Positions 3,083 through 23,782 of a stretch of DNA of 37,159 nucleotides are shown here, piece by piece. A program made the translations under genes and the position numbers. The notes under the pieces were generated by a model. That model was not told the DNA's origin, searched no databases, and saw only the letters and a program-made list of their open reading frames with translations. The first letter of the stretch is position 1. Each line of letters opens with the position of its first letter. This stretch comes from Candidatus Poseidoniaceae archaeon (GTDB lineage: Archaea > Thermoplasmatota > Poseidoniia > Poseidoniales > Poseidoniaceae): positions 1 to 37,159 of the forward strand of contig JAQXFL010000033.1 of the NCBI GenBank assembly GCA_029250345.1, given 5' to 3'.

Positions 3083-6000
3083 TCACTTATGCTGTACAAT
3101 TTCGCCTTCTGCGTTCTTGTACCACCATTCATTGGCTTCTTTGTCATGGTACCACCAGTAACCATCAGAGCCCATTACCCAGTCGGTTTCCTCGGTGTTT
3201 GAAGAAGGTGTGTCTTCGCTTACTGCGCCGGTTGCAGCTGCAGCCGTAGCCACTGATTCCGAACCGGTGTCGTCGACAGCGACCTCCTCTGCCTCTTCCT
3301 CTTCGTCTTCGTCTTCATACTCGAACTCAGAGGAGTATTCATCCCAATCGTATTCGGATTTAGAGCCGCGGTTGAGGGTTTTTCGACGAGCCCAAAGAAG
3401 ACCGGTCGTAATGATGGATACGAAGAGTAGCCCCGCTAAACTACCAAGCAATGGGTGAACATCGCCAAAGATTTGCTCTGAGAAAGAAACCTCGCGAGTT
3501 GGCCGGACATCAATGGATGGACCAATCGCACCTGTATCATCTACAATCTGAACTTCGACCCACTGCAAACCAGTTTGTGTAGGATTCCAGTCCGTGGCCA
3601 CCGGGACAATGCCTCCGAGAGGCACCTCAACGGTGACACGCTGTAGATTTGAGCGTTCACCTGTGGCTTGAACTTCTGTGAAAATCACCTCAACTGAGCC
3701 ATCGAGTGTACCCGTATTTTCAACATAGGCAGTGACAATAGAAGTTTGTCCAAGTTCAACTAGATAGCGTGAATACGTTATGGAAGTGCTTTGTAATTCA
3801 AACTCAGGCTTGAGCCATACCATGTCCCAAACAGCGACTGGAGAACCAGGTTCAGCACCGTCAAGACCGAGGACTTCGTTTCCTGCTAGGTCACGGCCAG
3901 CGACATACATGTGCACTGAAAGTCTGTTCTCAAGCATTTCATCGGTAATCTCGCTGAGGTCAAAAGAGCCAACAACTTCGAGCCTTAGACCGGAGAGATC
4001 TGTGCCGAGTAAGTTCAGTGGTTCGACTCCATTACGAAGACGGTCGCCGGTCGCTTTCTCTTCAACCCACCAAACGAGTTCGAGAGAGTCGACGTCCAAT
4101 CCTCCGGCTTCTGACATCAGGATTTTCACTTCATGAGATTCCGGTTCAAGAACCGAGAACGGTCGAGGATTCGAGACTTCTACCGGTTGAGGCCCTGTGC
4201 CGTCCACAATAATCCAGCGCACAGCGTTGTTAAGGTCGGTGGAGTCGATACCTTGACCTTCAAGACATCCCACTTTCCACGTGAGTGGAATGGTTTGGGT
4301 TGTCGATGGTGCTTGCAATGCTACAGACCAAACGCCATCAAGTGAATTGGCTGAAGAAGTGGAACCGGAGAACAAGAGGTCGATTTGGCAATCAAAGTCT
4401 GGAACGGTTCCTGTTTCCGAGAAGACGACGTTTCCTGCGATTTCGAATGGGCTGCTTGGAGCGATTCGAGCACCATCACCGAGCAATGCACCCTGCGAGA
4501 GAATGAGCGTTACGGTTTCTTCTGGAACTTCAAGAGCAGCGGAGAAACGCCATCGATGTTCTGGGAAGGCACGGAATACTTCCTGTCCTGCTCGGTCAAT
4601 CATGCGGATTCCTGGCTCTCTGCGTGTCTCGCCGAGGTCAGGGGTCGTCCAAGCGAGCTTGAAATCAACATTGAGCGTCAAATCGGTTTCGTAAGGGTCT
4701 GCTGGACCGTCGGCGCCAAGCATTTGACAGTCCTCAATCAAGACGTGAGGGCTGGTTGTCGTACAATTTCCAGTCGTAAAATCCCAACGAATCGGTAACG
4801 GGTCACTGCCTTGGTTTGACGCAAGTTCAACGATGACCGTCGTGAGGTCTGAACCGCCGTTTGGTTCGGTGATATCAACATCTAAGGTGTAAGGCATTTG
4901 TGGGTGAAGCCAAGGGTTCTTTCCGTCGGTATATGAATAAGCATTCGGAGCTACACTCGGGGCGCCGTCAACCGCCAACTGGTACATGAACAGGTGCTTA
5001 TCAACAACATCTGAGCCTCCAAACTCCAAAGGATGGCCTGCATCATCTGTGCCGGTCAAATAAACCGAAACTTTCTGCCCTAGACTGCCTCCGGTATCAT
5101 CCATCATGAACGTGTACTGCCCAATCAGTGGGCTCAAATCGTTCGGAGTGAACAGCGACATAGGCTGGTACTCGCCCTCATCTGGCCACTGGTTTGAATT
5201 GGCATCATCGAACCATTCTCGCCATACCATGGCTTGAATATTGGTTGGGAGAATTGGTTGGTCCGAAATCTGGATTTGGACCGTTTGAGTCGTTGACGGC
5301 ATACGATGGTCGTAGCGGTCCATGTTGACCTCGAGCACTCGCGGAGAGATGGTGTCAATGTGGAACGTTCGCTCAAGAGAGGTGAAGTCCGGATGGACCG
5401 AACCGTTTTCTGAGGTAAGTTCGATGCGCCATGTCAAAGGCCCGAAGGTGAACGGAACCGTGTCCTGATAGTTCCAAGTGTTCTCATCCAATGTTGTTGT
5501 GTTGGCAACCAGAACATCACCTCTGTAAAGCGAAAGCATTCCTTCTCCGTCCATGAAAGCGTCAATCGTAGAGACATTTTCGAATCCGACAAAGGCAGAG
5601 ATGTTGAGTTTAGTGTACGGAAGAAGGTAGTAATCCGATGAACCCAAAATGAGGTTTTCATCAGCGTTCGTGAAGGTCATAATGTTCAGTGTCAAATCAT
5701 TCTCATAGGCTTGGTTGCCGAAAACGCCGTATGTGAAAGTACTCGGCATGGAATACACGGTATTCGAAAGCTGGAGCCGTGTCGTTATTTTCATGGTATC
5801 CGTATCGTCCCATAACGGTAAAATCCGGAATTTTACATCGACGAGAACACTCGTGCCGGTTTGATTGAACGAGATTGACTCCGTTGGATGCAGTTCTATC
5901 AACTCAAAATCACCGGTTCCAAACGGTGTTGCCCCTGAGACTGGAACGGTCCACGTTGCCTGGTGATCATCATCAAGAACATCGAGGCGGATGGAACTCG

Positions 6001-9000
6001 GAGCAACTCCAATCACCGAGTACGACATACTGATTGTTCTCCATCGTTGACTTGGTGTGAGAACATCCACTTCAGGGTCAATGGTAGCGGTGTTCAAAAC
6101 AACGACTGCCGAGGAATTGAGACCGAGAACTTCAACGGTAAGACCGCCCTTTTGAGTAGAGGTGAGAGGCAATGGAATCTCATGCATACCGCCGACCAAA
6201 GGCAGCAATTTTCTGGCATCGTTGAGGTTGAGTACAAAAGTGGAATCGGACTCAAATGTTTGTGATGCCTGAGCGGAATAGGTGACCGAGAGACCGCTAA
6301 AATCGACGGTCGATGACGCATAGACTTCAATGTCGACTTCAACAAATCTTGTACCGAGATGATTCAAGCCGCCCTGGCCAGCAATCGATTGCTCGATGTT
6401 ATCACGAGTCGTCTGGTTGAGTTCAACATGCATAAGCGAAGTTTCATTGATCGTTTCAGATGCAAGAATCTGTGACTGATACAGCATGGTATAGCCGGTA
6501 ATAGAGGAATCAGCGTCCGTAACACCAAACGAGAAAGAGTGGAGTTCCGATAGCGGTACGAGGATTTTGGTTGTTGCATATCCTGAAGAGCCAACCGTTT
6601 CTGAAATGCTCTTGTTACCGTTTGAGAAAACGTCCTGCCAGCCCCAAGTACCGATGGTTGAGAAATCAGCACCCCACTCAAAGTCACCGTCATCGTTGAA
6701 ATCAAACCGTGGGTTGCTTGCGACTTCCCCGTAGTGAACACGGGTCTCAAACGATTCAACAGTCCAATATGCCAAGCCTGAATTCAACGGAACCAAACGG
6801 AACTGAAGCTCATACATTGGAGCCGATGAAGAAACATCGAAAGCACCCATGTTTGCCACAACCGTCCAAGATGCATTTGTTGTATCCCACATCTGGAGTT
6901 CGACATTGGTTCCTGTGACGCTACCGGTGACTCGTGATGTTGGTGCCACCAGTTGTCGAGAATCCATAGTTACGGAACAAGTAGAATCTCCTCGGTAGCC
7001 GTCAATATCGATTCCGGTGACGACGACTGTTGCGTTTTGCGCACCACCAGTCACATTCACCTCATCACCAATGGAATACAATTGCCCACCGTCTTGAACG
7101 AGAGGAGAAAGGAGTTCTCCGCCCCAGTTCCGTACAGCTTGTACCGTAAACATTCCACCGGTTCCTCCAGACACAGTAATTTGGTCGCCCACTGAATATC
7201 CCGAGCCTCGGCCAACAATCGACACTGAAGTTAGATTGCCACCAAGAGCGTAGACTGAATCGATTTCAATACGAGCGTTGAAATCTCCTCCCGAGAGAGT
7301 AATGAGGTCGTTCACCGCATACCCCGAGGCGTTGTTGAGGATGGTGTAACCTGTGATGGTGCCGCCTTGCCGGTTCGTATCGAGCACGGTGAAGTTTGCA
7401 TTGCTGTCCCCACCTGGTATGTTGAGAGTATCACCAACATCGTAATTGAGGCCAGGTGTACTGAATGAAATCGACGTGATTCCGCCACCGGTTTCAGTGA
7501 GACCAGTCGTGTAAAAGTAAGCGTCTGCGTCCCCACCTGAGATGTAGAGTTTATCGTAGAAACCGTAACCTGAACCGCCGCTAATGATGCTAATTGAAGT
7601 GATTGCGCCACCAGAAACTGAATCAATACTGACGCGCAGACCCGAGCCGGAACCGCCGCTCGTGAAAGCAAAACTCGTTGTCGAATAATTCGTTCCGCCG
7701 TTAAGGAGTGAATAACTGGTCGGAATTCCAGTGATAATCGGGCTGGCGGTATAGTCGATTTTCAAACCGCTACCGTTGCCGCCGCTCAATGCGACGTCGT
7801 TCGAGGAAGTGTATCCTGAACCGCCGTTCAACGAGGTGTAGAGTGATACAGCACCAGAACCGGTGATTGGCGTAGCTGTCGTCTGAATCTGTAGACCCGA
7901 ACCACTTCCGCCGTTTGGTGAGATGGTCTGTGAAGTGTATCCTGTGCCTCCCGCTGAAAGGCTTGAACCGTCCACGATACCTGACGTAACGGGGGTGGCA
8001 ACCGTAGCCACTGTGAGGCCAGTTCCGTTACCACCGCTGGTCGCTCTACCGTTACTGGTATTGGTGTAAAGGGAACCAACAGAAGTGACGCTCGAGAGTG
8101 AGTCAACTTCGTCTAAAATGTAAGGCAATGGACTGGTTTGAACGGTTAAACCGGTGCCGTGTGAACTGGTTGTTGCGACCGAGGACGAAGCAAGGTAAGC
8201 CCACCCCGGATCGAGAACATCGACTGTTGTTGCGGAGCCGTATGCGGTGAATTGGCCGTTCGCACCGCACATCGACTCAGAATTTCCGAGGTTTTGCCAA
8301 TCGGAATACCTTGTCGACATTGTCCCATCACCCGTCAGCGAATAGACGAGCGGAAGTATTCCATCCGAACCAGCCGAAAGAGAGAGCCGAATGCGTATCG
8401 AATCATGGACCGACTCATCGATGAGGTGGAGCGGTACTGTGAATGTATTCGAGCCAGTGAAGCCGGGAATTTCAACACCGTTGTCATCGAGTACCGTCCA
8501 GTTGAGTGATGCACCCGCAGGTACATAGGCGTCAATATTCATCGGTGCATAGATCGTTTTTGCCACTTGGAAGGAAGACGAGGAAGACCAACCAATACTC
8601 GGACTTGTCCAGTTCGAAACCGGTGGGGAAGCGATGCGAACATCGTCAAAGAACCAGTAATCATAGGTCGAACCTGTGCCGCCGGTTTGCAACATACGGA
8701 TTTGGGTGTTTGAATGCAATGCTGCTGCGGGCAATGTCCCAGTCCACTGCAGTGGAGGTTGATTGAAGGTGCTGCCGGACCATGTTTGGAGCGTTGTCCA
8801 AGTGCCTGAAGCGGTTTTGTATCGCAGTTGAAGGTCTTCGTTGGTGTCCGGTTCTTCACCGCAACTGGAAGTACCTTGTCGAATCCAAATATGAATAGGA
8901 ACAGCGTTTGCACCTGCCAAATTGATGGTTGGAGAGGTTGCGTGTTCAGAAGATGAGGCAGAAGGTGCTTGTGTTTTGATTGAACCTCCCGAGGTGCCGT

Positions 9001-9472
9001 TGACACCGCATGCGTTCGTGTAAAGGCCGACATAAGAGGAACTGGACACCGTCCAACCCTGTAGCCCGTTGTTGAAATCCCAGAGAGTGCCTGCGCGTGA
9101 ACCGGTCAAGAAGCCGTCAGCGTCAACAGTTGCACCATCATTGACTGCATCACTGTGACCCCATGCAGAAGTACCACTCCACACTAAGCCGTTTGATGAG
9201 GGCTCGATTCCGGGGGACATTGAGAGATGAACATCAGTCACAGGTTGGGATGAAGGGACGTCGAGCGTCAACTCATCACTGTAGAGGCCAGAGCCGTCTA
9301 AAAACAACTGTGAGGCTGGGTCACCACCGGATGCCAACGAAACCGAAGATTCTCTGAGTTCACCGGATGTATCCGTTTCTGCAGTAGATGCAAGAAATGT
9401 ACTCAGTGGCCCGGTCAACATCAAGAACAGTATGAGAAAACATAGCAATTTTAACCGATACCCTGCCGACAT
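3083..9472 (-). CDS. Giant (~2130 aa) membrane-anchored surface protein: signal peptide, reelin-like domain, nested Gly-rich repeat insert, beta-sandwich/CARDB-like domains, TM helix, acidic tail
   Basis: Uninterrupted 6.4-kb ORF. Hydrophobic N-terminus (LKLLCFLILFLML), VENTGTLDG CARDB-like motif, TM LLGSLAGLLFVSIITTGLLW followed by RRK, and a D/E-rich tail. Start 9472 preferred; 9478 is possible. Confidence 0.85.
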   Translation of the reverse strand: MSAGYRLKLLCFLILFLMLTGPLSTFLASTAETDTSGELRESSVSLASGGDPASQLFLDGSGLYSDELTLDVPSSQPVTDVHLSMSPGIEPSSNGLVWSGTSAWGHSDAVNDGATVDADGFLTGSRAGTLWDFNNGLQGWTVSSSSYVGLYTNACGVNGTSGGSIKTQAPSASSSEHATSPTINLAGANAVPIHIWIRQGTSSCGEEPDTNEDLQLRYKTASGTWTTLQTWSGSTFNQPPLQWTGTLPAAALHSNTQIRMLQTGGTGSTYDYWFFDDVRIASPPVSNWTSPSIGWSSSSSFQVAKTIYAPMNIDAYVPAGASLNWTVLDDNGVEIPGFTGSNTFTVPLHLIDESVHDSIRIRLSLSAGSDGILPLVYSLTGDGTMSTRYSDWQNLGNSESMCGANGQFTAYGSATTVDVLDPGWAYLASSSVATTSSHGTGLTVQTSPLPYILDEVDSLSSVTSVGSLYTNTSNGRATSGGNGTGLTVATVATPVTSGIVDGSSLSAGGTGYTSQTISPNGGSGSGLQIQTTATPITGSGAVSLYTSLNGGSGYTSSNDVALSGGNGSGLKIDYTASPIITGIPTSYSLLNGGTNYSTTSFAFTSGGSGSGLRVSIDSVSGGAITSISIISGGSGYGFYDKLYISGGDADAYFYTTGLTETGGGITSISFSTPGLNYDVGDTLNIPGGDSNANFTVLDTNRQGGTITGYTILNNASGYAVNDLITLSGGDFNARIEIDSVYALGGNLTSVSIVGRGSGYSVGDQITVSGGTGGMFTVQAVRNWGGELLSPLVQDGGQLYSIGDEVNVTGGAQNATVVVTGIDIDGYRGDSTCSVTMDSRQLVAPTSRVTGSVTGTNVELQMWDTTNASWTVVANMGAFDVSSSAPMYELQFRLVPLNSGLAYWTVESFETRVHYGEVASNPRFDFNDDGDFEWGADFSTIGTWGWQDVFSNGNKSISETVGSSGYATTKILVPLSELHSFSFGVTDADSSITGYTMLYQSQILASETINETSLMHVELNQTTRDNIEQSIAGQGGLNHLGTRFVEVDIEVYASSTVDFSGLSVTYSAQASQTFESDSTFVLNLNDARKLLPLVGGMHEIPLPLTSTQKGGLTVEVLGLNSSAVVVLNTATIDPEVDVLTPSQRWRTISMSYSVIGVAPSSIRLDVLDDDHQATWTVPVSGATPFGTGDFELIELHPTESISFNQTGTSVLVDVKFRILPLWDDTDTMKITTRLQLSNTVYSMPSTFTYGVFGNQAYENDLTLNIMTFTNADENLILGSSDYYLLPYTKLNISAFVGFENVSTIDAFMDGEGMLSLYRGDVLVANTTTLDENTWNYQDTVPFTFGPLTWRIELTSENGSVHPDFTSLERTFHIDTISPRVLEVNMDRYDHRMPSTTQTVQIQISDQPILPTNIQAMVWREWFDDANSNQWPDEGEYQPMSLFTPNDLSPLIGQYTFMMDDTGGSLGQKVSVYLTGTDDAGHPLEFGGSDVVDKHLFMYQLAVDGAPSVAPNAYSYTDGKNPWLHPQMPYTLDVDITEPNGGSDLTTVIVELASNQGSDPLPIRWDFTTGNCTTTSPHVLIEDCQMLGADGPADPYETDLTLNVDFKLAWTTPDLGETRREPGIRMIDRAGQEVFRAFPEHRWRFSAALEVPEETVTLILSQGALLGDGARIAPSSPFEIAGNVVFSETGTVPDFDCQIDLLFSGSTSSANSLDGVWSVALQAPSTTQTIPLTWKVGCLEGQGIDSTDLNNAVRWIIVDGTGPQPVEVSNPRPFSVLEPESHEVKILMSEAGGLDVDSLELVWWVEEKATGDRLRNGVEPLNLLGTDLSGLRLEVVGSFDLSEITDEMLENRLSVHMYVAGRDLAGNEVLGLDGAEPGSPVAVWDMVWLKPEFELQSTSITYSRYLVELGQTSIVTAYVENTGTLDGSVEVIFTEVQATGERSNLQRVTVEVPLGGIVPVATDWNPTQTGLQWVEVQIVDDTGAIGPSIDVRPTREVSFSEQIFGDVHPLLGSLAGLLFVSIITTGLLWARRKTLNRGSKSEYDWDEYSSEFEYEDEDEEEEAEEVAVDDTGSESVATAAAATGAVSEDTPSSNTEETDWVMGSDGYWWYHDKEANEWWYKNAEGEIVQHK
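7001..8239 (-). repeat. Intragenic protein-level repeat array: 5 x type A (~42 aa) followed by 5 x type B (~41 aa)
   Basis: Type A: GxxY...(GG)xG[ST]GLx[VI]. Type B: GGx[IL]TS..GSGY.VGD...SGG...A.F.V. The A/B junction is at 7612/7613. Confidence 0.85.
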
Positions 9473-9496
9473 CAACATTCCGTAGCGGTCTAACGA

Positions 9497-9502
9497 TTTG
9501 AA
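9497..9502 (-). promoter_or_regulatory. Putative TATA-position hexamer TTCAAA
   Basis: Begins 30 nt upstream of ATG 9472. Confidence 0.5.
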
Positions 9503-9584
9503 ACATACCCAAGCCCAATCCGGAGCCACTGCTGCGAATCAGTGGAAAAGGAAACTCCTCATGCCACCTTTGAGAAGGGTGAGG

Positions 9585-12600: not shown

Positions 12601-12901
12601 ACAAATCAGTTTGGTTCTCGACATGAACGACACTCCAGACTTGTTGTCAAAGGGCCTTGCCCGAGACATCACTCGTCGCATACAAGCGATGAGGAAAGAC
12701 CTCAACCTCGCTATTGAAGCAACGATTGATTTGGAAATCTGGACCAAAGATGCTCCCGAAATGTTCGAACAAGACCGGCAATGGATTGTCACTGAAACAC
12801 GTGCTGCTGCTGCTGTATTCCATTCTGAGTCGAGCGGTGCTCCATCAAATGCAGAACACTTTGAAGTGGACGGGACAACCGTTTGGTTCACCGTTCAATG
12901 A
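9614..12901 (+). CDS. ileS: Isoleucine--tRNA ligase (type 2)
   Basis: EGPPTANG.PGIHH, GWDTHGLPVE, WTTTPWTLP, GTGVVH, DWAISRERYWG, EGVDQTRGWF, KMSKS, SNWYVRRSRRR. Alternative starts are 9608 or 9542. Confidence 0.97.
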   Translation: MARPHSAGELDAVALETALLETWKQENAFRASIDSNGNGAPFIFLEGPPTANGKPGIHHVVARAYKDLVCRWKTMEGFRVERKGGWDTHGLPVEIEVQKRMDLMSNEAIEAYGMDNFNQACRDSVWTYESAWREMTERMAYWVDLDNPYVTLDNNYVESCWWAMKQMFDKGLLYRGHKVLPYCPQTGTSYSSHEVALGYKEVEEPSVYVKFKLIDDDASILAWTTTPWTLPGNVGLAVGPEVTYVRVRITEQAENWIGAGGASDGEEVILAKDLMKDVLRHNVEIIEEFPGSSLVGRSYEPLFPDAVPRGESTTAWTVLEADWVTTTDGTGVVHTAVMYGEDDYNLGMAAGLPAYHTVGMDGAFLAGTHPQLDGRYVKECDQTVIELLSAKGGSNGKGPESGLLYREKSYLHDYPHCWRTDHPLLYYAMDSWFVRMTAVKERLLEFNDGVEWAPEWVGEGRFGEWLRNVKDWAISRERYWGTPLPVWRDDEGNMKCIGSIAELQSEVAKAVAAGFENPECPDDVDLHRPVVDGYTLVSDDGKPMHREPFVMDCWFDSGCAPFAQWHHPFEGKETFDASFPVDYICEGVDQTRGWFYTLLAVSTTVFDQPAYKRCLSLGLILDAEGKKMSKSRGNIVDPWDHFNREGADATRWYMVTAGAPWNPLKFDSNGVRETYAKMFLTLWNVYKFHADYAALDGFDPEQSTSDVASRSSLDRWILSRLATTANNYHADFKQWNFHKACRDLEEFIVNDVSNWYVRRSRRRLWDDAETSDKVACQHTLHEILTTVCRLVAPVSPFMVDVIHRNLTGKTVHQAAWPLGIPGSLDGATADEWDEEAAAETANLPPQDMSLEATMALVRELAEVGRRIRVEAGRRQRLPCAQGWIVSGPDMAEFHDILAEELNVELIEVENDLDRFQQIELAPNFRALAPKARSEVNAVAGEIKNAGDPTAMLASIQAGTCEILGVAIEESDVEVRRIEREGFAASTVTIGQGDDAQQISLVLDMNDTPDLLSKGLARDITRRIQAMRKDLNLAIEATIDLEIWTKDAPEMFEQDRQWIVTETRAAAAVFHSESSGAPSNAEHFEVDGTTVWFTVQ

Positions 12902-12934
12902 TGCTCAACTGTGCTTTAACACCTCATCGACGGC

Positions 12935-12940
12935 TTCAAA
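12935..12940 (+). promoter_or_regulatory. Putative TATA-position hexamer TTCAAA
   Basis: Begins 29 nt upstream of ATG 12964. Confidence 0.5.
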
Positions 12941-12963
12941 GCGATGTGCCGATACGCAACATC

Positions 12964-14370
12964 ATGCGAAGAGTCTTGCTCTCTGTCCTATTGGTTGCCT
13001 CAACGGTCTTGGCTGGCTGTTTTGGCGGTGGTGAAGAGATCATAGACAACGAGTCGGAAATGACCTCGATTTGGGAGTCTTACCAACTCATCGACAGCGT
13101 GGCCCATGAAGATGCACGCATGTTCGTCACCGTCGATTTGAGAACCAATGAGACCACCAACACCTCATGGGCTGTTTTCGATGCTTCGAAAGGCGGCAAC
13201 TGCTGTGAACACTACCTTGCCACGACCATCGAAGGACAAATACTCAACATTGGTGGAGAATATCCGGTCTTCAGTGAAGACCGTGGCCACACATGGGACA
13301 CATACATTCCAGGCGTCTTACCCGCACTCGGCCAATGCGTCACTGCAGTCCCAACGAACCCAGGACAAGAAGGTCTCGGAGAAGGCAGTATCGTCCAAGC
13401 CACCAATGGAGACATCATCTCCATGTCGTGGTTCCCGTACGTTGGTGCAGATGGGAAAATCGACAAATTCTATGCCATCCTCTATGACGAGTCCGAAGAC
13501 GAATGGAAGTGGTGCTACAACCGCTTGACTGAACCGTTTTACGACCGCTCATGGCAGGTTGAGGTCGTAGGCCCGATTACATCCTCTATTGGCAACGGCG
13601 ATTGGGCAAGCATCGTAGTCTCCAATTTCTGGCATCAATCGCTTGATGCTGGAGGCCAGATAAGCGTCGATGGACTCAATTACGTACCATTCCAGTTCAC
13701 GAGCAGAGATTCAAATGACCCGATTATCGAGCTCGACCTTAATTTCACAGAAGAAGGATTGTCGTCCTACTACGATGTCAATAAACCTCACAAAGAAATG
13801 CGAGCATTCCCAATGCCAAGCGGTGGCCTCATTTTCCCGAATTATTACAACAACGGTAACGCCGCCTACATGGATACCACCTTGTCTTGGAATGAATTAG
13901 AAGTTCAGTTCCCTTCGGAATACTGCCACTTTGACTCCGCAGGAACCTTGCATTGTGTTGTCAACTCCGGTACTTCCTTCACGCACTACATGTCCACCGA
14001 CGGTGCACTGACATGGCAAAACCACACCTACGACATGAGTTCGGTATCATCGTCCATTGAAGAATGGGAATTCCAAGCCAACGGTGAATTGGACCTGTTC
14101 GTGTTGAATGTACGTTACCAAAGCACCGGTGGACCAGATATTGACATGATGTACCATGTACGTGGATATTCTGAAGATATGTCTCCAGATTCCATGACCT
14201 ACATTGGTCAAGGTGACCTTGACTCTACCTCGGGGGCTGGAAACGATATCCGTTTCGACTTTGCTTCGCTCGGCATCCTCAACGACGGTGGAGTCGTCGT
14301 GGCATACCATGATTCAACCGACCCCGACCCGTTGTTTGCGGTCGAACTGGAATTACCGTACACTTCATGA
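12964..14370 (+). CDS. Lipoprotein with Asp-box/BNR motifs (probable beta-propeller), function unknown
   Basis: Signal peptide with lipobox (MRRVLLSVLLVASTVLAGC); Asp-boxes SEDRGHTW and STDGALTW. Confidence 0.75.
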   Translation: MRRVLLSVLLVASTVLAGCFGGGEEIIDNESEMTSIWESYQLIDSVAHEDARMFVTVDLRTNETTNTSWAVFDASKGGNCCEHYLATTIEGQILNIGGEYPVFSEDRGHTWDTYIPGVLPALGQCVTAVPTNPGQEGLGEGSIVQATNGDIISMSWFPYVGADGKIDKFYAILYDESEDEWKWCYNRLTEPFYDRSWQVEVVGPITSSIGNGDWASIVVSNFWHQSLDAGGQISVDGLNYVPFQFTSRDSNDPIIELDLNFTEEGLSSYYDVNKPHKEMRAFPMPSGGLIFPNYYNNGNAAYMDTTLSWNELEVQFPSEYCHFDSAGTLHCVVNSGTSFTHYMSTDGALTWQNHTYDMSSVSSSIEEWEFQANGELDLFVLNVRYQSTGGPDIDMMYHVRGYSEDMSPDSMTYIGQGDLDSTSGAGNDIRFDFASLGILNDGGVVVAYHDSTDPDPLFAVELELPYTS

Positions 14371-14736: not shown

Positions 14737-16617
14737 TCATTCAACGCTGACACAGCGTTCATGAAGGCATTCTGGCGGAGTAAAATAGATTTTATCGGCA
14801 GGTACGAATGTATCCATTTGGAGCGTCGAAGATTCTCCTTCTTGGACAAACACAACAGATGAGGTACTTGCTGGCAAGTAATCTTCACCCGTTGAAAGTA
14901 AACTCAATCGAAGCGTATGGCCTTCAAGAATTTCCGCATCGAGAGGCATGAACTCCATCTTCGCATTGATCGTTTCAACAACAGGCGTCCATGATTGAAT
15001 ATCGTCGCCGCCTGCATGGTATCGCAAATCCATAATGGCATGACCGATGTGAATGCAGTTATCCGAATCATCACATTCTTCGAGCAGCGCATACAGTTGT
15101 CCCCCGACGGATGCAGTGGTAACATCAACGTGCAGTCGAGGTGTGCCTGCAACATACATGGTTTCTGAAAGTGGAGCAGATTGCCAAACCGGTCCAGTGT
15201 TCGCATCGGGGAATACAGTCGTCCCGCCTCCTACGCTCTCCATTGAACCGCCTAAATCGAAGGTGATTTCGACCGTGTCGCTTGGAGGATACCTGTCCTC
15301 GAGTCTCCATGAGCCTTGGTTGGACTGAATCTCGATGTAAAGGCCCGGTTGTTCACCGACATCTCGCAAATAGAAATCAAACCATTCGAGTAAATCTTGC
15401 ATCCAGTCATAGCGAATCATTTCGGGGAACGCTTCACCACCACGGCCACCTAAGTCCGATCGGTCATCCAACTGAACTGGGCGGTCTGGATAGTCGTGGT
15501 CCCACTGGCCAAACAACCCCTTTGCATCGATTCCAGCGTCTTTGAGTGCATTCATCGTCGGCACCGCCATGTGCGGGTCAACGTTCCAATCATGCATACC
15601 TTGGATCAGGTAAACACTGCCTTGGTAATTGTCCAAGACCCGTTCAAGGAAGTATCGTTCAGCCCAGTAATCACCGGCCACTTCCGAGCCGAACATGTAC
15701 GCAGTAACGCCTGTACCTGGGCCGATGATGTAATCCGGACAGAGGTTTTGATAATCCTCTTCATCGCCATCCAACCCGTAAGAACCGTAAACGCCATTAT
15801 GCATAATCGGAGCTCTCGCTTCGGAAGAACCGTTGCGCCACATCAATTCCTTGACACCAATCAATCCAGAAATTGGTACAATGGTCTTGAGATAATCGTG
15901 CTCAGCACCGAACATAGCTGCTTGCCAAGGTGTACTTCCATCGTATGATTTTCCAATCATTCCGACAGCGCCGTTCGACCAATTTTGCTCTGCGAGCCAT
16001 CGCACTGCAGCATCGTTACCAAGTTGCTCAGCATTACCCATCAAATCCATGCAGTGGTTCGAGCGTCCAGTTCCGGAAACTGAGACTTGTGCGAATGCAA
16101 AACCGTGCGGAAGAATTTGGTCGATAATCATCTGACCAAGCCAAGTGCCCGGGACTTCGATGCTTGGTGTCTCAACCGATGCTTCCTGGAAATAAGGTCC
16201 AAATTCTGCAATAACTGGTACTTGAACGCCATCAGGAACATTTGGTCGCCAAACAGCGAGACTGATGACGGCATCATCAGGAGCGGCTCCACCTTCTTCA
16301 ATCGGAAGGGCGTACTCAACAAAATGGTGCGTAGAACTCCATTCATTTTCGGTTGGTAGCAATTCATACGGCCCAACTTCAAGGGCAACCCCGAACTCGC
16401 CATCGGTTTGGTAAGGCAAGGTGTTTCGTTCCCAAACCGGAACACGAAGCGCAGAAAGTTGGTCATCATCTTCGACGATTTCGATAATCGCACCACTGTA
16501 TACTGCAGAAACAAAAAGGAAGACCAAAGAAACGGCAACGGTAGAACTCAACACGATGTTGAACTCAAGCATCGAGCGACCATGATCATCTGAACCGTCT
16601 TGATTCAACTCCTTCAC
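14737..16617 (-). CDS. CocE/NonD family hydrolase (X-Pro dipeptidyl-peptidase S15-like), N-terminal membrane anchor
   Basis: [23 protein letters not shown] (nucleophile Ser), QGMHDWNV, GQWDH and a C-terminal PepX_C-like domain; GTG start. Confidence 0.88.
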   Translation of the reverse strand: MKELNQDGSDDHGRSMLEFNIVLSSTVAVSLVFLFVSAVYSGAIIEIVEDDDQLSALRVPVWERNTLPYQTDGEFGVALEVGPYELLPTENEWSSTHHFVEYALPIEEGGAAPDDAVISLAVWRPNVPDGVQVPVIAEFGPYFQEASVETPSIEVPGTWLGQMIIDQILPHGFAFAQVSVSGTGRSNHCMDLMGNAEQLGNDAAVRWLAEQNWSNGAVGMIGKSYDGSTPWQAAMFGAEHDYLKTIVPISGLIGVKELMWRNGSSEARAPIMHNGVYGSYGLDGDEEDYQNLCPDYIIGPGTGVTAYMFGSEVAGDYWAERYFLERVLDNYQGSVYLIQGMHDWNVDPHMAVPTMNALKDAGIDAKGLFGQWDHDYPDRPVQLDDRSDLGGRGGEAFPEMIRYDWMQDLLEWFDFYLRDVGEQPGLYIEIQSNQGSWRLEDRYPPSDTVEITFDLGGSMESVGGGTTVFPDANTGPVWQSAPLSETMYVAGTPRLHVDVTTASVGGQLYALLEECDDSDNCIHIGHAIMDLRYHAGGDDIQSWTPVVETINAKMEFMPLDAEILEGHTLRLSLLSTGEDYLPASTSSVVFVQEGESSTLQMDTFVPADKIYFTPPECLHERCVSVE

Positions 16618-18740: not shown

Positions 18741-20549
18741 TCAGCACAACCGTGCTGAATCGATTGAATAATCATGCATTGGAGCTTGGAAGAGGTCGGC
18801 ACAAGTCCGATTCACCAACGGTAGAGTGAGCGTAGCGCCCGCCCAATTGATTGAATATCCGCCAATAGCACCGGGTGAAGGAACGTAATCCAAACCGGTT
18901 TGCGACATTGTGATTTGGATGGATTCGCCCGCAGAAAGGAAAATATCCATTGGCATGAACTCCATGAGTCCGGTCACCGATACAAACGCACCGAGAGCAA
19001 CATCTCCATCGCGGCCACCGTCAGCGAATCTGAAATCCATGACGGCATGGCCGAGGCGCATTCCTGAGTCGTCGCTCATTTCCAAGAAAGCGTGAGCGCC
19101 GTTGGTTGTATGCGTCGTGATTGGAATGTGGAAAGTTGGCATACCTGCAATGTAGACATCCTCGTCAAATGGACCGTATGAAAGTGTAATCGTTTCGGTC
19201 GTTGTCACCATTGAAGCGCCGCTTGGGTTCATGTCCGCAGCACCGATTTCCATGTAGAAGGTATCCTCAGCCGGATAGGTGGTCTCAAATCTCCAGCCAC
19301 CTCGATTGTCTTGCATTTCAACTCCCAAGGTTGGTGCACGGCCCTCGCCCTTGAGGTACCAGTCGAACCAGTAGAGCATCTCATCGGCCCAATCCCAGCG
19401 AAGAGTGTACGGGTAAGCCTCTGCCCCTTCGCCCGATGGAAGTGCTTCATGGCCGGTTTTACGGTCTGGATAATCGTGGGCCCACTGGCCTGCAAGTGTC
19501 TTGGTTTCGATGCCTGCAGCTTCGACCAATTGGTGCGTCGGGAAAGCCATGTGAGGGTCAACGTTCCAGTCTTGCATACCTTGTATGATGTAGATTGAAC
19601 CTTGATAGTTCTCAACGACTCGATCGAGGAAGGAGCGTTCAGTCCAATAGGTATTGCCTGCATAGTCAACCATTCCGCCGGAAAGATATGCGGCAGGTCC
19701 GTTAAGATAACCTTCAAGATATCCTTCACAGAGGTTCTCTGGGTCTTCTGCATCGCCATCGACGCCAAAGGAGCCGTAAACACCGTTGTGCATAATCATA
19801 CCACGGGCCTCCATACTACCGTTGCGCCACATGAGTTCGTGAACACCAATAAGTCCAGACATTGGAACAATGGTGGCCAAATGCGGATTGCCAAACGTTG
19901 CTGCTTGCCAAGGCGTGGAGCCGTCGTATGACTTTCCAATCATTCCGACTTTGCCGTTGGACCATGGCTGCGTTCCGAGCCATGTCACTGCTGCGTCTAT
20001 GCCGCGTTGTTCATCGGTTCCCATGAGGTCCATGCAATGGTTGGATTCACCGGTCCCAAATACAGAAACTTGTGCAACTCCGTATCCGTGAGGCACGTAG
20101 TTCTCGATGAGGAACTTACCAAGTCGGTCGGCTGGAGTGAGAGCGTCGACGTCTCCGTCGTTGTAGTACGGTCCGACTTCAGCAATGACTGGGATTTGAC
20201 ATTCCGCTGAAAGATTTGCAGCAGTCCAGTCGCAGCCATCAATCACAGGCATCCAAAGTCCAAGATGGACTTCAGCGCCGCCGGTCAAGCCGGAGCCTCC
20301 GTCCGCAGCAGTGATGCTTGGAACTGCGACATAGACGGACTGTACCGTATCAATCGGGTATGAGCCGTTTTGAGTCACACGAGAGTAAATGTCTGAATCA
20401 TCGTATTGCATTTGACTGCGATCCCAAGGCTCAGGAAATACATCGTACGACGCTTCTATGCCGCCTTCGTCAATCAATTGTTCGCCGAAACATCCGGACA
20501 AACTGGTTGTCAACATTACGAACAAAATCAGCCACGGGCGGAAGTTCAT
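18741..20549 (-). CDS. CocE/NonD family hydrolase, lipoprotein; paralog of 14737-16617
   Basis: Lipobox LSGC; [56 protein letters not shown]. Confidence 0.88.
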
Positions 20550-20573
20550 GTTACTACGGGACAGGGTATGTTT

Positions 20574-20579
20574 CTTGAA
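20574..20579 (-). promoter_or_regulatory. Putative TATA-position hexamer TTCAAG
   Basis: Begins 30 nt upstream of ATG 20549. Confidence 0.5.
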
Positions 20580-20608
20580 CACACCGGCTGTTTGAATCGG
20601 CTGGTGAA

Positions 20609-20992
20609 TCACTCGGATTCAGTTTCTTGTGCTGCTTTTTGCGCTTCCATTTCGGCACGGACTTCATCCATGTCCAGTTCTCCAAGTTTGACGACCAAGT
20701 CACGTAGAGCATCCTCTGGGAGAGCTCCTGGCTGCATGAAAACGCCGATGCCATCTTTGAAAGCAACCGTTGTTGGTATTGAGCGTATGTTAAACGATTG
20801 AGAGAGCATTGGCTCGGCTTCGGTGTCGATTTTACCGAAAACAACATCCGGGAATTCTTCGGAAACTCGTTCATAGACCGGACCGTAGGCTTTGCACGGC
20901 CCACACCATTCCGCCCAAAAGTCGAGCAGTACGAGTGAATTGTTGTCGATAATGTCGGAAAAGTTAGGTTCGAGAATCTCTACTGTGGCCAT
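20609..20992 (-). CDS. trxA: Thioredoxin
   Basis: [11 protein letters not shown] active site; IRSIPT cis-Pro motif. Confidence 0.95.
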
Positions 20993-21053: not shown

Positions 21054-21059
21054 TTCATG
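21054..21059 (+). promoter_or_regulatory. Putative TATA-position hexamer TTCATG
   Basis: Begins 29 nt upstream of ATG 21083. Confidence 0.45.
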
Positions 21060-21082
21060 TGCTCACTGCGGAACGCCATTCC

Positions 21083-23782
21083 ATGCGCCTAGCCCAACTG
21101 ACGACATTGCTTGTCCTCGTTTTGTTTCTTGCACCCTTGATTCCTGCCGATGGAAGTTCACTTGAACAAGCCAACGTCGCCAAAGTTGATGCACGAAATT
21201 CCGACATCGTAGTCTCAGAACTTTTCCGAAGCCCGAACCAACTCAAGTCCAATGCCACCAATGCGAACATCTACAATGCCGTTGATTGGAACAACGATGG
21301 CGACTATGGGAAGTATTCGGACCAATTTATCGAATTGTGGAACACCGGTTCATCGCCAGTGAATGTTTCGGATTGGGTACTCAGTTCAACATCTGGTAGC
21401 CCGCCGTGTCAACTCGCTTGGAATACAGTGATTGACCCAGACCAACGAATCGTTGTATTCAGTGCCGATTCGGACATTGTACTGAGTTATTTCGAAGAGG
21501 AAACTGTATCCATTACCGACACCTCGAACACGCTCGCCAACTCAATGACGATACCAAAAGAATTCGGATTCTACGGCAACTCGATCGTGATTGATTCCTC
21601 TGGAAACGCAATTGAAGTTGACCCGTCTCCTGGTTGGGGTCCTGGCGACGCTGATTCGACCGTTGCTCTCAACATCGTCAAATGCTTCAAGGTTTCAGAA
21701 ACAGGTTCCGACGCTTTCATCCTCAAAGGCCGAGTCGTCACCATGGAAAACGAAAACAGCGTTCTAAACCAAGGAAATGTATTGGTTCGAGACGGTAAAA
21801 TCGAAGGCGTATGGTCGTCGAGTGACTCGGTCCCAGTAACCGCTGACCTTACCAATGCAGTCATCATCGAAACCAACGGAACAATCTATCCAGGACTTAT
21901 TGACTTGCACAATCACGTTCACTACAATCACATCCCATTGTGGGACTTCAATGTCCACTTGAGCGAAAGTCAACGCTCTGACGAAGGAGGATACACCAAC
22001 CGATACCAATGGGGCAACAACTACGATTACGGCCCGAGTATCACATGGATGAAAAACAACATTCAACAAAACAGCCGCTGGGGAATGGCAAGTGAACAAA
22101 TGAAGTATGCAGAAGTTCAAGCCGTTGCAGGTGGAGTGACTGCAATACAAGGCTCGCCAGGCTCAGGCACTTCCGCATGGGACAGCATGTTGGCTCGCAA
22201 CGTCGAATTGTACAACTTCGGACAAGATGGAATCTCTACCTGCGCTGTGTGCGGGGCTGCTGATGACGACTACACTGGAAGCCATCTGATTTCTCAAAAT
22301 CAATCAGGCTCATTGAACGCATGGTTCGTGCATTTGGCGGAAGGAGTGGACAGCAGCAGTAAGTCCGAATTTGACGCTCTATGGGACAAGGGACTCATCA
22401 TGGATGAAACCGTTGTCATTCACGGAACAGCACTTGACCGCCCTCAATTCGATAAGATGGCAACCGTCGGAGCAGATTTGGTCTGGTCACCAATCTCAAA
22501 CCTCCTCCTTTACGGAAACACGACCAATGTCCGGGCTGCAGATGCTGCAGGCGTCACCATCTCTCTCGCACCAGACTGGGGTCCAAGCGGTTCGAAGAAC
22601 AACTTGCATGAACTCAAAGTGGCTGACCTGTGGAATCAAGACGTCATGGATTCGTATTTCACAAACTATGAACTAGCTGAAATGGTCACCAGCAATCCCG
22701 CTAAAGCAGCAAATTGGGATCCATTTGTTGGACAACTCAAGGCAGGAATGTATGCAGACATCGTCGTGATGGACACCTTCCACGATGACCCTTACCGTAA
22801 CTTAATCGAAGCGATTGATGCAGATGTCCGACTTACTGTCGTTCAAGGAAAGGCTGTCTTCGGAGATACGGACATCATGACTGCCATAAACCAAGATGAT
22901 TGGGAGCCAATCACTGGTGGAGGCGTCTCAAAGGCTGTCGATGTAACATCGATGTCTGAGGTCGACGGCTCTCAAACTTGGGAAAGCATCGAATCAGGAA
23001 TGGCTATGGCAATGCGAAACGAAGTTTCTGACATTCGCCAACACTGGTCTGCCCCTGACAACATCGCTTGGGAAACCGATGCCGATGTTCAAGCATACCT
23101 CGACACGGAGTTCGACGGAAAGAACGCAGCAAACACAGGAGTCTCTCAGTTGAAAAGCATGACCGTTGATCCAATTTTCACCACTGGAGATGAACGTTAC
23201 TTCGACGTCATCAACCGCTCGACATGGGCCAACACCCACGTCGACCTGTCCAAACTCTATGCCTACTACGACATCTCCATGGATGCAGATGGAGACCGTG
23301 ACGGCGTCAATGTCGACCTGTCAACCGACCCAGCGAACGCTGGCAACACAGGTGGCAACAGTGGAAACAACGGCGATGCGACCGATGGCACGGACAATAC
23401 CGGCGGCAACACAGATACAACCGACGGAACAGACACGACGGATGGCACGGACGCAACCGACGGAACAGATACGACGGGTGGCACAGACACAACCGACACT
23501 TCAGGAGATTCCGACGCAGACTCAACATCTGGAGATTCAGATGAAAGCAATGCAAAGTACTTGCTTGTTGGAGTTCTAGCCGTGATTGTTGCAGGTTTAT
23601 TTTTCCTCAGTCGAAACGGTGGCGATGAACTGAACTTGAGTCAAGAGGCTCACATCGAAAAGATGTGGGACGATGATGCACTCGATGCCGCTGTGAATAC
23701 AGAAAAGGAATCGACAGGGTTTGTACCAGCCCCGCCTCCGATGGAATTCAAGTCGAGTTCGACGGCGAACGAAGAAGAGTGA
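21083..23782 (+). CDS. Secreted, membrane-anchored metal-dependent amidohydrolase with N-terminal lamin-tail-like domain
   Basis: Signal peptide; lamin-tail-like IVVSEL...DQFIELWNTG; amidohydrolase motifs PGLIDLHNH, VHLAEG, IHGT, LAPDW, GQLKAGMYADIVV; D/T/G linker; C-terminal TM helix. Confidence 0.85.
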   Translation: MRLAQLTTLLVLVLFLAPLIPADGSSLEQANVAKVDARNSDIVVSELFRSPNQLKSNATNANIYNAVDWNNDGDYGKYSDQFIELWNTGSSPVNVSDWVLSSTSGSPPCQLAWNTVIDPDQRIVVFSADSDIVLSYFEEETVSITDTSNTLANSMTIPKEFGFYGNSIVIDSSGNAIEVDPSPGWGPGDADSTVALNIVKCFKVSETGSDAFILKGRVVTMENENSVLNQGNVLVRDGKIEGVWSSSDSVPVTADLTNAVIIETNGTIYPGLIDLHNHVHYNHIPLWDFNVHLSESQRSDEGGYTNRYQWGNNYDYGPSITWMKNNIQQNSRWGMASEQMKYAEVQAVAGGVTAIQGSPGSGTSAWDSMLARNVELYNFGQDGISTCAVCGAADDDYTGSHLISQNQSGSLNAWFVHLAEGVDSSSKSEFDALWDKGLIMDETVVIHGTALDRPQFDKMATVGADLVWSPISNLLLYGNTTNVRAADAAGVTISLAPDWGPSGSKNNLHELKVADLWNQDVMDSYFTNYELAEMVTSNPAKAANWDPFVGQLKAGMYADIVVMDTFHDDPYRNLIEAIDADVRLTVVQGKAVFGDTDIMTAINQDDWEPITGGGVSKAVDVTSMSEVDGSQTWESIESGMAMAMRNEVSDIRQHWSAPDNIAWETDADVQAYLDTEFDGKNAANTGVSQLKSMTVDPIFTTGDERYFDVINRSTWANTHVDLSKLYAYYDISMDADGDRDGVNVDLSTDPANAGNTGGNSGNNGDATDGTDNTGGNTDTTDGTDTTDGTDATDGTDTTGGTDTTDTSGDSDADSTSGDSDESNAKYLLVGVLAVIVAGLFFLSRNGGDELNLSQEAHIEKMWDDDALDAAVNTEKESTGFVPAPPPMEFKSSSTANEEE
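23372..23500 (+). repeat. Degenerate 18-bp tandem repeat encoding (D[TA]TDGT)n linker
   Basis: Translates as DATDGT DNTGGNT DTTDGT DTTDGT DATDGT DTTGGT DTTDT. Confidence 0.8.

Follow-up and report, generated by a model that had tools for sequence, protein, structure and literature searches.

The stretch of DNA analysed here, called the window, comprises the 37,159 nucleotides of contig JAQXFL010000033.1 from a Candidatus Poseidoniaceae archaeon (assembly GCA_029250345.1). An open reading frame (ORF) list with translations placed on its reverse strand, at 3083..9529, the gene for a surface protein of 2148 aa, P0001. Two hydrophobic segments were found in this protein, an N-terminal signal/anchor (aa 26-48) and a C-terminal membrane helix (aa 2026-2046), with a large extracellular part between them and an acidic tail at the C-terminus. 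The close relatives (54-94% identity) are hypothetical proteins, assigned by their source to the Poseidoniales/Poseidoniaceae (Marine Group II archaea), and one copy of P0001 was detected in its own assembly, which is 75% complete. An initial annotation, made from the letters of the window, had described a giant archaeal surface protein, which is a fair label. The subject of this work is the repeat array at residues ~421-851 of P0001. With a probability of about 70%, we consider it to be a nested, Russian-doll arrangement of five ~80-aa beta modules that would form a two-stranded stalk.

Two motifs mark the array. Five copies were found of the A motif, G[ST]GL.[VI] (aa 458, 502, 543, 586 and 628; spacing 44, 41, 43 and 42), and five of the B motif, GG.[IL][TL][SG] (aa 640, 681, 722, 763 and 803; spacing 41, 41, 41 and 40). 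All A motifs lie before all B motifs, and zero copies of either were found outside the array when the whole protein was scanned. Shuffling the region 20,000 times with its composition preserved gave at most two A and three B motifs (means 0.04 and 0.12, respectively), so that five copies were never reached. A G..Y anchor recurs every 40-43 aa across the array, nine times as G..Y and once as an ASGY ending at aa 737, and the ten units of 40-43 aa can all be aligned in a single register. The initial annotation had reported five A-type halves followed by five B-type halves, of which only the central pair is contiguous; both statements were confirmed, the last A and the first B motif lying together at aa 628-655 and the motifs being spaced by 40-44 aa. 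The coordinates proposed there, 7613-8239 (aa 431-639) for the A part and 7001-7612 (aa 640-843) for the B part, fall within the array, whose true extent is slightly larger, from just behind the Cys421 codon to just ahead of the Cys851 codon.

The units were laid out and compared with a hidden Markov model (HMM) of the canonical unit, which was seeded with the central unit and built from 62 non-orthologous hits. In order, the array reads cap-A4-J-B4-tail or, when shifted by half a unit, A'5B'5. The cap (aa 422-445; 8195..8266, reverse strand, as for all features of the array) is a strand-2-type element ending in G..Y that starts the first half-module, A'1, and it was matched weakly, over positions 16-40 of the canonical HMM. 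It is followed by the four A units of the outward arm (aa 446-488, 489-531, 532-573 and 574-615; 7685..8194), which were labelled A' by the half-module HMM; the canonical HMM matched units 2-4 over positions 2-43, 2-46 and 6-42 (E 3e-5 to 8e-7) and unit 1 weakly (E 0.77). The junction unit J (aa 616-655; 7565..7684) stands at the tip of the array, consists of an A-type first strand contiguous with a B-type second strand, gave a full-length match to the canonical HMM (E 2e-15), and is the best-conserved unit across the relatives (alignment A2). The four B units of the returning arm (aa 656-696, 697-737, 738-778 and 779-818; 7076..7564) were labelled B', with matches over canonical positions 23-46, 11-46, 11-46 and 6-46, and each has an x-h-x-D-x-h-x-h linker ahead of it. 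The tail (aa 819-850; 6980..7075) holds only the B-type linker and first strand, lacks a closing G..Y unit and ends B'5; the same tail form was seen in 30 relatives. This layout is kept in nine orthologues (54-94% identity), in the fragment P0073 and at six genome loci (86-93% identity).

The array is framed by two cysteines. Cys421 (8267..8269) stands directly before it and Cys851 (6977..6979) directly after it, in the context ...GYRGDSTC..., and both are invariant in the alignment of ten orthologous sequences (A1) and present in the distant orthologue P0074, where the pair surrounds 5:5 units. Apart from the two cysteines of the leader (Cys9 and Cys30), all cysteines of P0001 fall into pairs, namely 174/223, 421/851, 1589/1601 and 1714/1755. 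A disulfide between Cys421 and Cys851 probably clamps the ends of the array.

Every half of the array proved to be the whole ~41-aa canonical GSGY repeat in circularly shifted form; the canonical HMM matched all units of P0001 at E<=2e-4 except the cap and unit 1. Since a half is a full repeat, each domain would be a pseudo-dimer of two GSGY repeats rather than a single divided 40-aa unit. The module, M, is ~80 aa long and has two homologous halves. The half A' is composed of strand 2, G..Y, a linker strand and strand 1, and the half B' is composed of the same elements with a D-containing linker. The similarity of A to B units was weak in hhalign (E 0.01 with four sequences each) and reached a local E of 6.8e-4 over 19 columns when orthologue units were included. 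Stand-alone ~80-aa AB modules, alone or in tandem, occur in P0072, P0068 and P0140, and because single AB modules occur by themselves, AB was taken as the folding unit.

The initial annotation had predicted that homologues should have equal numbers of A and B units. To count them, 38 proteins were laid out manually and read by eye, which gave nA = nB in 30 (n = 1-5), one unequal protein (P0092, 2:1) and seven unclear ones (P0112, P0179, P0023, P0035, P0109, P0127 and P0207); five further proteins had no match to the junction pattern. Equal counts were found at n = 5 in P0074; at n = 4 in P0001, P0076, P0077, P0079, P0014 and P0017; at n = 3 in P0080, P0082, P0084, P0089, P0012, P0013 and P0024; at n = 2 in P0085, P0090, P0093, P0096, P0099, P0108, P0146 and P0046; and at n = 1 in P0100, P0147, P0160, P0098, P0101, P0204, P0184 and P0111. 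A tally of the 30 relatives, with P0001 (4:4) named separately, put nine at n = 1, nine at n = 2, seven at n = 3, four at n = 4 and one at n = 5. The closer cassette relatives, laid out unit by unit, all read cap-A^n-J-B^n-tail, which is A'^(n+1)B'^(n+1) in the half-shifted register. HMMs of the A' and B' half-modules, trained on 23 proteins of our own curation, returned A'^(n+1)B'^(n+1) in all 23, with extra upstream units in P0012, P0013, P0017 and P0046 and with one cassette A' missed (a gap) in P0012. Two other ways of typing the units were tried and given up. HMMs trained on whole orthologue units produced all orders and unequal counts among distant relatives, as they mix canonical and cassette units and cannot test the grammar, and counting by regular expressions flagged B units as A and was too noisy, so that it was replaced by the half-module HMMs.

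When the half-module HMMs were applied with strict labels to non-orthologous proteins outside the training set, clean runs of A followed by B were equal in 30 cases and unequal in 7, while 24 runs were ambiguous or mixed. When each A' was taken to open a bracket and each B' to close one, balanced words made up 34 of the 47 clean two-type runs; in 5000 shuffles of the labels within runs, their number averaged 13.7 and never exceeded 25. One of the balanced words, that of P0035, is non-trivial: it reads AAAAABABBBBB, with four shells around two tandem inner modules, and being balanced yet not symmetric it fits nesting but would not fit a simple zipper of two arms. Equal counts were also found in cassettes of reverse order, B^nA^n (4:4 in P0213, 3:3 in P0239 and 4:4 in P0091, with a score of only 8.7 bits for the last A' in P0091), and the module is apparently nestable with either half first, judging from these orders. 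In two distant Poseidoniales-like relatives, P0074 (aa 663-707) and P0211 (aa ~226-330), the A-type strand of the innermost units is immediately preceded by a C..C pair. The order in P0211, which is a fragment, is AAAAAABA..., one that suggests two tandem inner modules as in P0035.

Within the cassette subfamily, A and B counts co-vary 1:1 over n = 1-5 rather than independently. The predicted equality holds there (30 of 38 by eye; 30 against 7 by HMM), and it supports the earlier expectation that length changes come in pairs; it does not extend to distant relatives, whose uniform canonical arrays behave as simple tandems. The tail sheath protein P0218, for instance, carries five uniform canonical GSGY units with similar A and B scores and no A/B cassette, and the same repeat therefore also occurs as a plain tandem array in the outer region of a sheath. 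A test of duplication history, in which the identity matrix of the A units was compared with that of the B units (52 pairs, 10 proteins), was uninformative (r 0.12 mirrored and 0.10 same-order).

In several relatives the cassette is an insert in another domain. The Pfam PA match of P0077, P0079, P0089 and P0160 sets in just behind the tail, at profile position 23-25, and the intact PA domain of P0076 aligns in two pieces flanking the cassette in P0077, P0079, P0089, P0160 and P0090; the two pieces of P0089 are 21-84 (E 4.5e-13) and 376-489 (E 1.6e-35). In the PA-domain hosts the cassette is followed by ...VYRG[DE]C..., which by eye resembles the ...GYRGDSTC... around Cys851 of P0001. The cassette of P0080, P0082 and P0084 separates ...DDFS.G.. 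from W..., which by eye form one uninterrupted motif at ~aa 150 of P0001. A bona fide tail sheath protein, P0215, has an AABB cassette between Gp18_domIII_N and Phage_sheath_1, and 3:3 or 4:4 cassettes are carried by the phage-like proteins P0012, P0013, P0014, P0017 and P0024. Because the cassette is inserted in short loops of these other domains, the ends of the array must meet. In P0001 itself the invariant cysteine pair suggests that the ends are adjacent, and an out-and-back topology is further implied by the loop insertion together with this pair.

The structure of the array was predicted by AlphaFold2. With the 47 diverse rows of alignment A2, a mean predicted local distance difference test score (pLDDT) of 86.4 was obtained, with three strands per half-module and no helix in the array; with ten orthologues only, the pLDDT was 29.3. 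The two arms were then treated as separate chains and docked, the cap with A1-4 (197 aa) against B1-4 with the tail (200 aa). J was omitted because a split hairpin could give a trivial pass. The interaction score ipSAE was 0.53 in all three runs and 0.00 in the best of three controls, which the tool classes as weak support; the runs shared >=95% of their contacts and the pLDDT of the partners was >=82. In the calibration of the tool, 58 of 80 solved complexes attained the mark, as did 2 of 110 mismatched pairs; scores of 0.60 or less held 7 of the 80 solved complexes and both passing mismatches, a rough guide here because our own alignment was used. We took the docking as modest support, because the equal counts and the insertion contexts had already raised the prior.

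The initial annotation had also likened the central unit to a GSGY-type unit of marine phage structural proteins, and had proposed a comparison with phage tail and sheath proteins. The likeness was borne out by Foldseek, which returned 23 models of BFVD at E<=0.001, among them virion structural, baseplate wedge and tail-fibre-like proteins of Synechococcus and Prochlorococcus phages. These cyanophage proteins have the identical ~40-aa repeat unit; many phage and bacterial relatives, however, carry it in uniform tandem arrays without the A/B grammar. As for the proposed comparison, the best matches of the A2 profile in the PDB were tail sheath proteins in the region of domain I (9x3p_A, residues 97-175, E 0.0017; 9ev2, residues 102-263, E 0.0022), followed by the gp18 fragments 3fo8 (E 0.027), 3foa (E 0.23) and 9mkb (E 0.75). 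The Pfam family Gp18_dom_I (PF22639) matched fragments of the window with 16.9 and 17.1 bits (E 0.0063 and 0.0053), over profile positions 5-24 only. Six of 47 family members gave a match at E<=0.01, the lowest E being 3.4e-4, and for none was a score above the cut-off reported. The matches to the sheath are thus consistent, at marginal E values in the PDB and below the Pfam cut-off. A PDB search with the single sequence gave chance-level matches only (angiopoietin, E 0.44), a scan of viral contigs with A1 patterns gave no confirmed locus, and a search of the ESM Atlas with the tip module led only to unnamed viral clusters, at scores of 0.85, which are no more than a lead.

Domain I of T4 gp18 (residues 98-188) is described as a six-stranded barrel with a helix that protrudes outward, and is inserted in domain II, which is itself inserted in domain III (PMC3004832). 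It is the best sequence relative of our array with a solved structure, and the match spans one AB module, in the form of two adjacent G..Y units. Like the cassette in several relatives, domain I is an insert, and gp18 as described is built by domain-in-domain insertion with domain I as the outward-protruding barrel; the sheath protein P0215 moreover has a two-level AABB in the corresponding region. The match suggests that domain I of gp18 is a single-copy form of this module. There are also differences. The nested domains of gp18 have unlike folds and include one copy of domain I, whereas here the same module is apparently inserted into itself, up to five or six deep; and the domain I of the published description has a helix, whereas none was predicted in the array of P0001.

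Taken together, we propose the following arrangement. A module M alone would be an insertion domain with both ends together, probably a six-stranded barrel like domain I of gp18. Two halves of three strands would make six, and in such a meander the termini would lie at one end and the hairpin between the third and fourth strands at the opposite end, where the next module could be accommodated. In the array a further M would sit in this tip hairpin between the halves, four times over. If a cap-J-tail is inserted in the J hairpin of another copy, the grammar of the array is reproduced exactly, as outer strand 1 and the inner cap would make an A unit, and the inner tail and outer strand 2 a B unit. 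The chain would run outward through five A' halves, turn in J and return through five B' halves, with the ends probably held by the disulfide between Cys421 and Cys851. The resulting stalk of five stacked barrels would project from the extracellular part of the membrane-anchored protein, and its length would be set by the depth of nesting. No sign of an enzymatic function was seen in the array. From this anatomy and from the exposed, non-contact position described for domain I of gp18, its role is most likely mechanical, as a rigid, length-tunable projection or spacer that would show the conserved tip module to particles, polymers or cells.

This agrees with the initial annotation in the nested out-and-back course of the chain, to which the equal counts, the loop insertion, the cysteine pair and the docking all point, and departs from it in the nature of the halves, which had been regarded as split domains and are full GSGY repeats. 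That last observation is one of several that weigh against nesting. The monomer model had a predicted template modelling score (pTM) of only 0.55, and in all its units strand 1 is set apart from strand 2 by a tight break of two residues. Covariation between unit pairs (1442 pairs; effective number of sequences, Neff, 1342) placed strand 1 locally with the next strand 2 (columns 19-32/34 and 17-35), in an alignment that is dominated by canonical units and same-column duplication signals and is uninformative on long-range pairing. The pairing of A'k with B'k is a prediction, and the tool reads a docking score of this size as 'more often wrong than right unless the guess was likely beforehand'. 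On the side of the counts, the 38 layouts depend on reading by eye and the half-module HMMs on our curation; under strict labels the seven unequal clean runs are P0092 (AAABB), five ABB and P0016 (AAAB), the C-terminal ABB group recurring in P0111, P0116, P0174, P0199 and P0032, and in the bracket reading another 13 of 47 clean runs were unbalanced. With loose labels, where every unit was forced to A or B at 8 bits, counts were equal in 46 of 75 A+B+ runs and in 26 of 40 B+A+ runs, and pure A-like or B-like canonical arrays exist, such as P0088 with 12 A and 0 B. No host domain was identified around the array of P0001, which has no Pfam PA match; a BLAST of the intact PA region against P0001 gave only an E of 0.021 on the upstream side (aa 331-415), and PA sequence was not found on both sides. 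The PDB matches to the sheath are all marginal, and the gathering score of Gp18_dom_I (27 bits) was not reached by the window fragments.

Much of this evidence would suit a chain that runs out and back without split domains, in which autonomous ~41-aa hairpin units, five out and five back, have their arms zipped side by side. Matched arm lengths would then explain the equal counts, and the insertion contexts would fit equally well. The match of each unit to the full canonical HMM, the local covariation of strand 1 with strand 2 across the family and the two-residue breaks between these strands in the model are all as expected for autonomous hairpins, and the weak docking of the arms (0.53 against 0.00 for the best control) would be as well. 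Such an arrangement has more difficulty with the stand-alone ~80-aa AB modules and with the sequence relatives in the PDB, which are described as a single six-stranded barrel domain; balanced words that are not symmetric, such as that of P0035, are awkward for it and natural for nesting. We regard the zipped arms as unlikely. A linear tandem array of ten GSGY repeats in two subtypes, as beads on a string or a solenoid with the A-then-B order inherited as a block without structural meaning, is very unlikely, as the single register of the ten units, the uniform arrays of many relatives (P0218 among them), the low pTM and the uninformative mirrored-duplication test (r 0.12 vs 0.10) are outweighed by equal counts over n = 1-5 in several unrelated host proteins, by insertion in short loops that requires the ends to meet, by the invariant flanking cysteines and by arms that dock, with weak support, where the controls scored zero. 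The plain tandem array had at first been considered as a full account, given the single register and the full HMM matches, and was dropped once cap-A^n-J-B^n-tail with equal n had emerged.

Beyond P0001, the nested stalk may be one case of a wider device: a self-inserting phage-type barrel with a balanced-bracket grammar and a depth from 0 to at least 5, used as a portable plug-in stalk in unrelated hosts. The evidence tips slightly in favour of such a general mechanism, for which no earlier description has come to light. Its hosts would be marine phages (sheath, baseplate and fibres), Bacteroidota proteins of the type IX secretion system (T9SS) and Poseidoniales archaea, and the nest would be portable between the loops of these hosts because the ends of the module stay together. 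No description of the repeat, its nested form or the balanced grammar was found in open-access papers and bioRxiv.

Insertion of one domain into another is itself already known, as described for gp18, Si3 and myosin X. Si3 of the cyanobacterial RNA polymerase is described as eight SBHM domains inserted in the trigger loop (PDB 8emb), and not as a simple tandem, as the chain folds over itself and SBHM-2 to -5 hold elements from distant parts of the sequence (PMC10895346). It resembles our array in being elongated, in repeating a single beta domain and in its insertion within a loop. It belongs to another fold family, with no significant structural or sequence match, 8emb chains standing at ranks 2, 3, 5 and 8 of the Foldseek PDB list without significance (E 0.07-0.24, probability <=0.06); and its architecture is fixed, whereas the P0001-type module has a variable nesting depth (n = 0-5), many hosts and a strict A'/B' grammar. 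In the PH1N-PH2-PH1C of myosin X, a PH domain is described as split by a second PH copy to form a rigid supramodule (PMC3216653), which differs from the present case in its single nesting level, its other fold and its intracellular, eukaryotic setting.

Outside the array, and given for context only, a jelly-roll-like domain lies at aa 201-299 of P0001 (8633..8929, reverse strand; Pfam PF21471, Reelin subrepeat B, E 2.9e-6, 27.5 bits with a cut-off of 27). The cytoplasmic tail that follows the membrane helix (aa 2047-2148; 3083-3391, reverse strand) is strongly acidic and ends in a Trp/Tyr-rich motif, ...DGYWWYHDK..EWWYK..., which is kept in all full-length orthologues. The genes around P0001 are housekeeping genes, encoding NAD synthase, Ile-tRNA ligase, Cys-tRNA ligase and S15 peptidases. 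Two paralogous S15 genes (X-Pro dipeptidyl-peptidase family) were located at 14737-16617 and 18741-20612, both on the reverse strand, on either side of a MutS-domain-V/HhH gene. A protein-degrading lifestyle has been proposed for the Poseidoniales, and the paired S15 peptidases would fit it. An ORF of 495 aa (12883-14370, forward strand) follows immediately on the Ile-tRNA ligase gene, whose end it overlaps by 19 bases, and had no Pfam match at E<=0.001. At 21059-23782 (forward strand) a protein of 907 aa of the amidohydrolase family is encoded, whose N-terminal match to a Lamin Tail Domain is weak, with 31.7 bits where the cut-off is 34.3. This protein may be a further enzyme that is secreted or sits at the surface.

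Repeat proteins usually grow by tandem duplication. The P0001-type data point to growth by nesting, with a testable rule, the balance of A' and B' halves. If confirmed, this would be a module found in nature that inserts into itself to give two-stranded stalks, presumably stiff and adjustable in length, which would matter both for evolution and for protein design, and the grammar could be used to parse thousands of unannotated 'GSGY-repeat' regions in marine metagenomes. The finding links the surface architecture of an uncultured, globally abundant group of marine archaea to modules of marine phages and Bacteroidota, and if the wider view is true, these organisms and phages would share a general, previously undescribed way to build length-tunable rigid projections.

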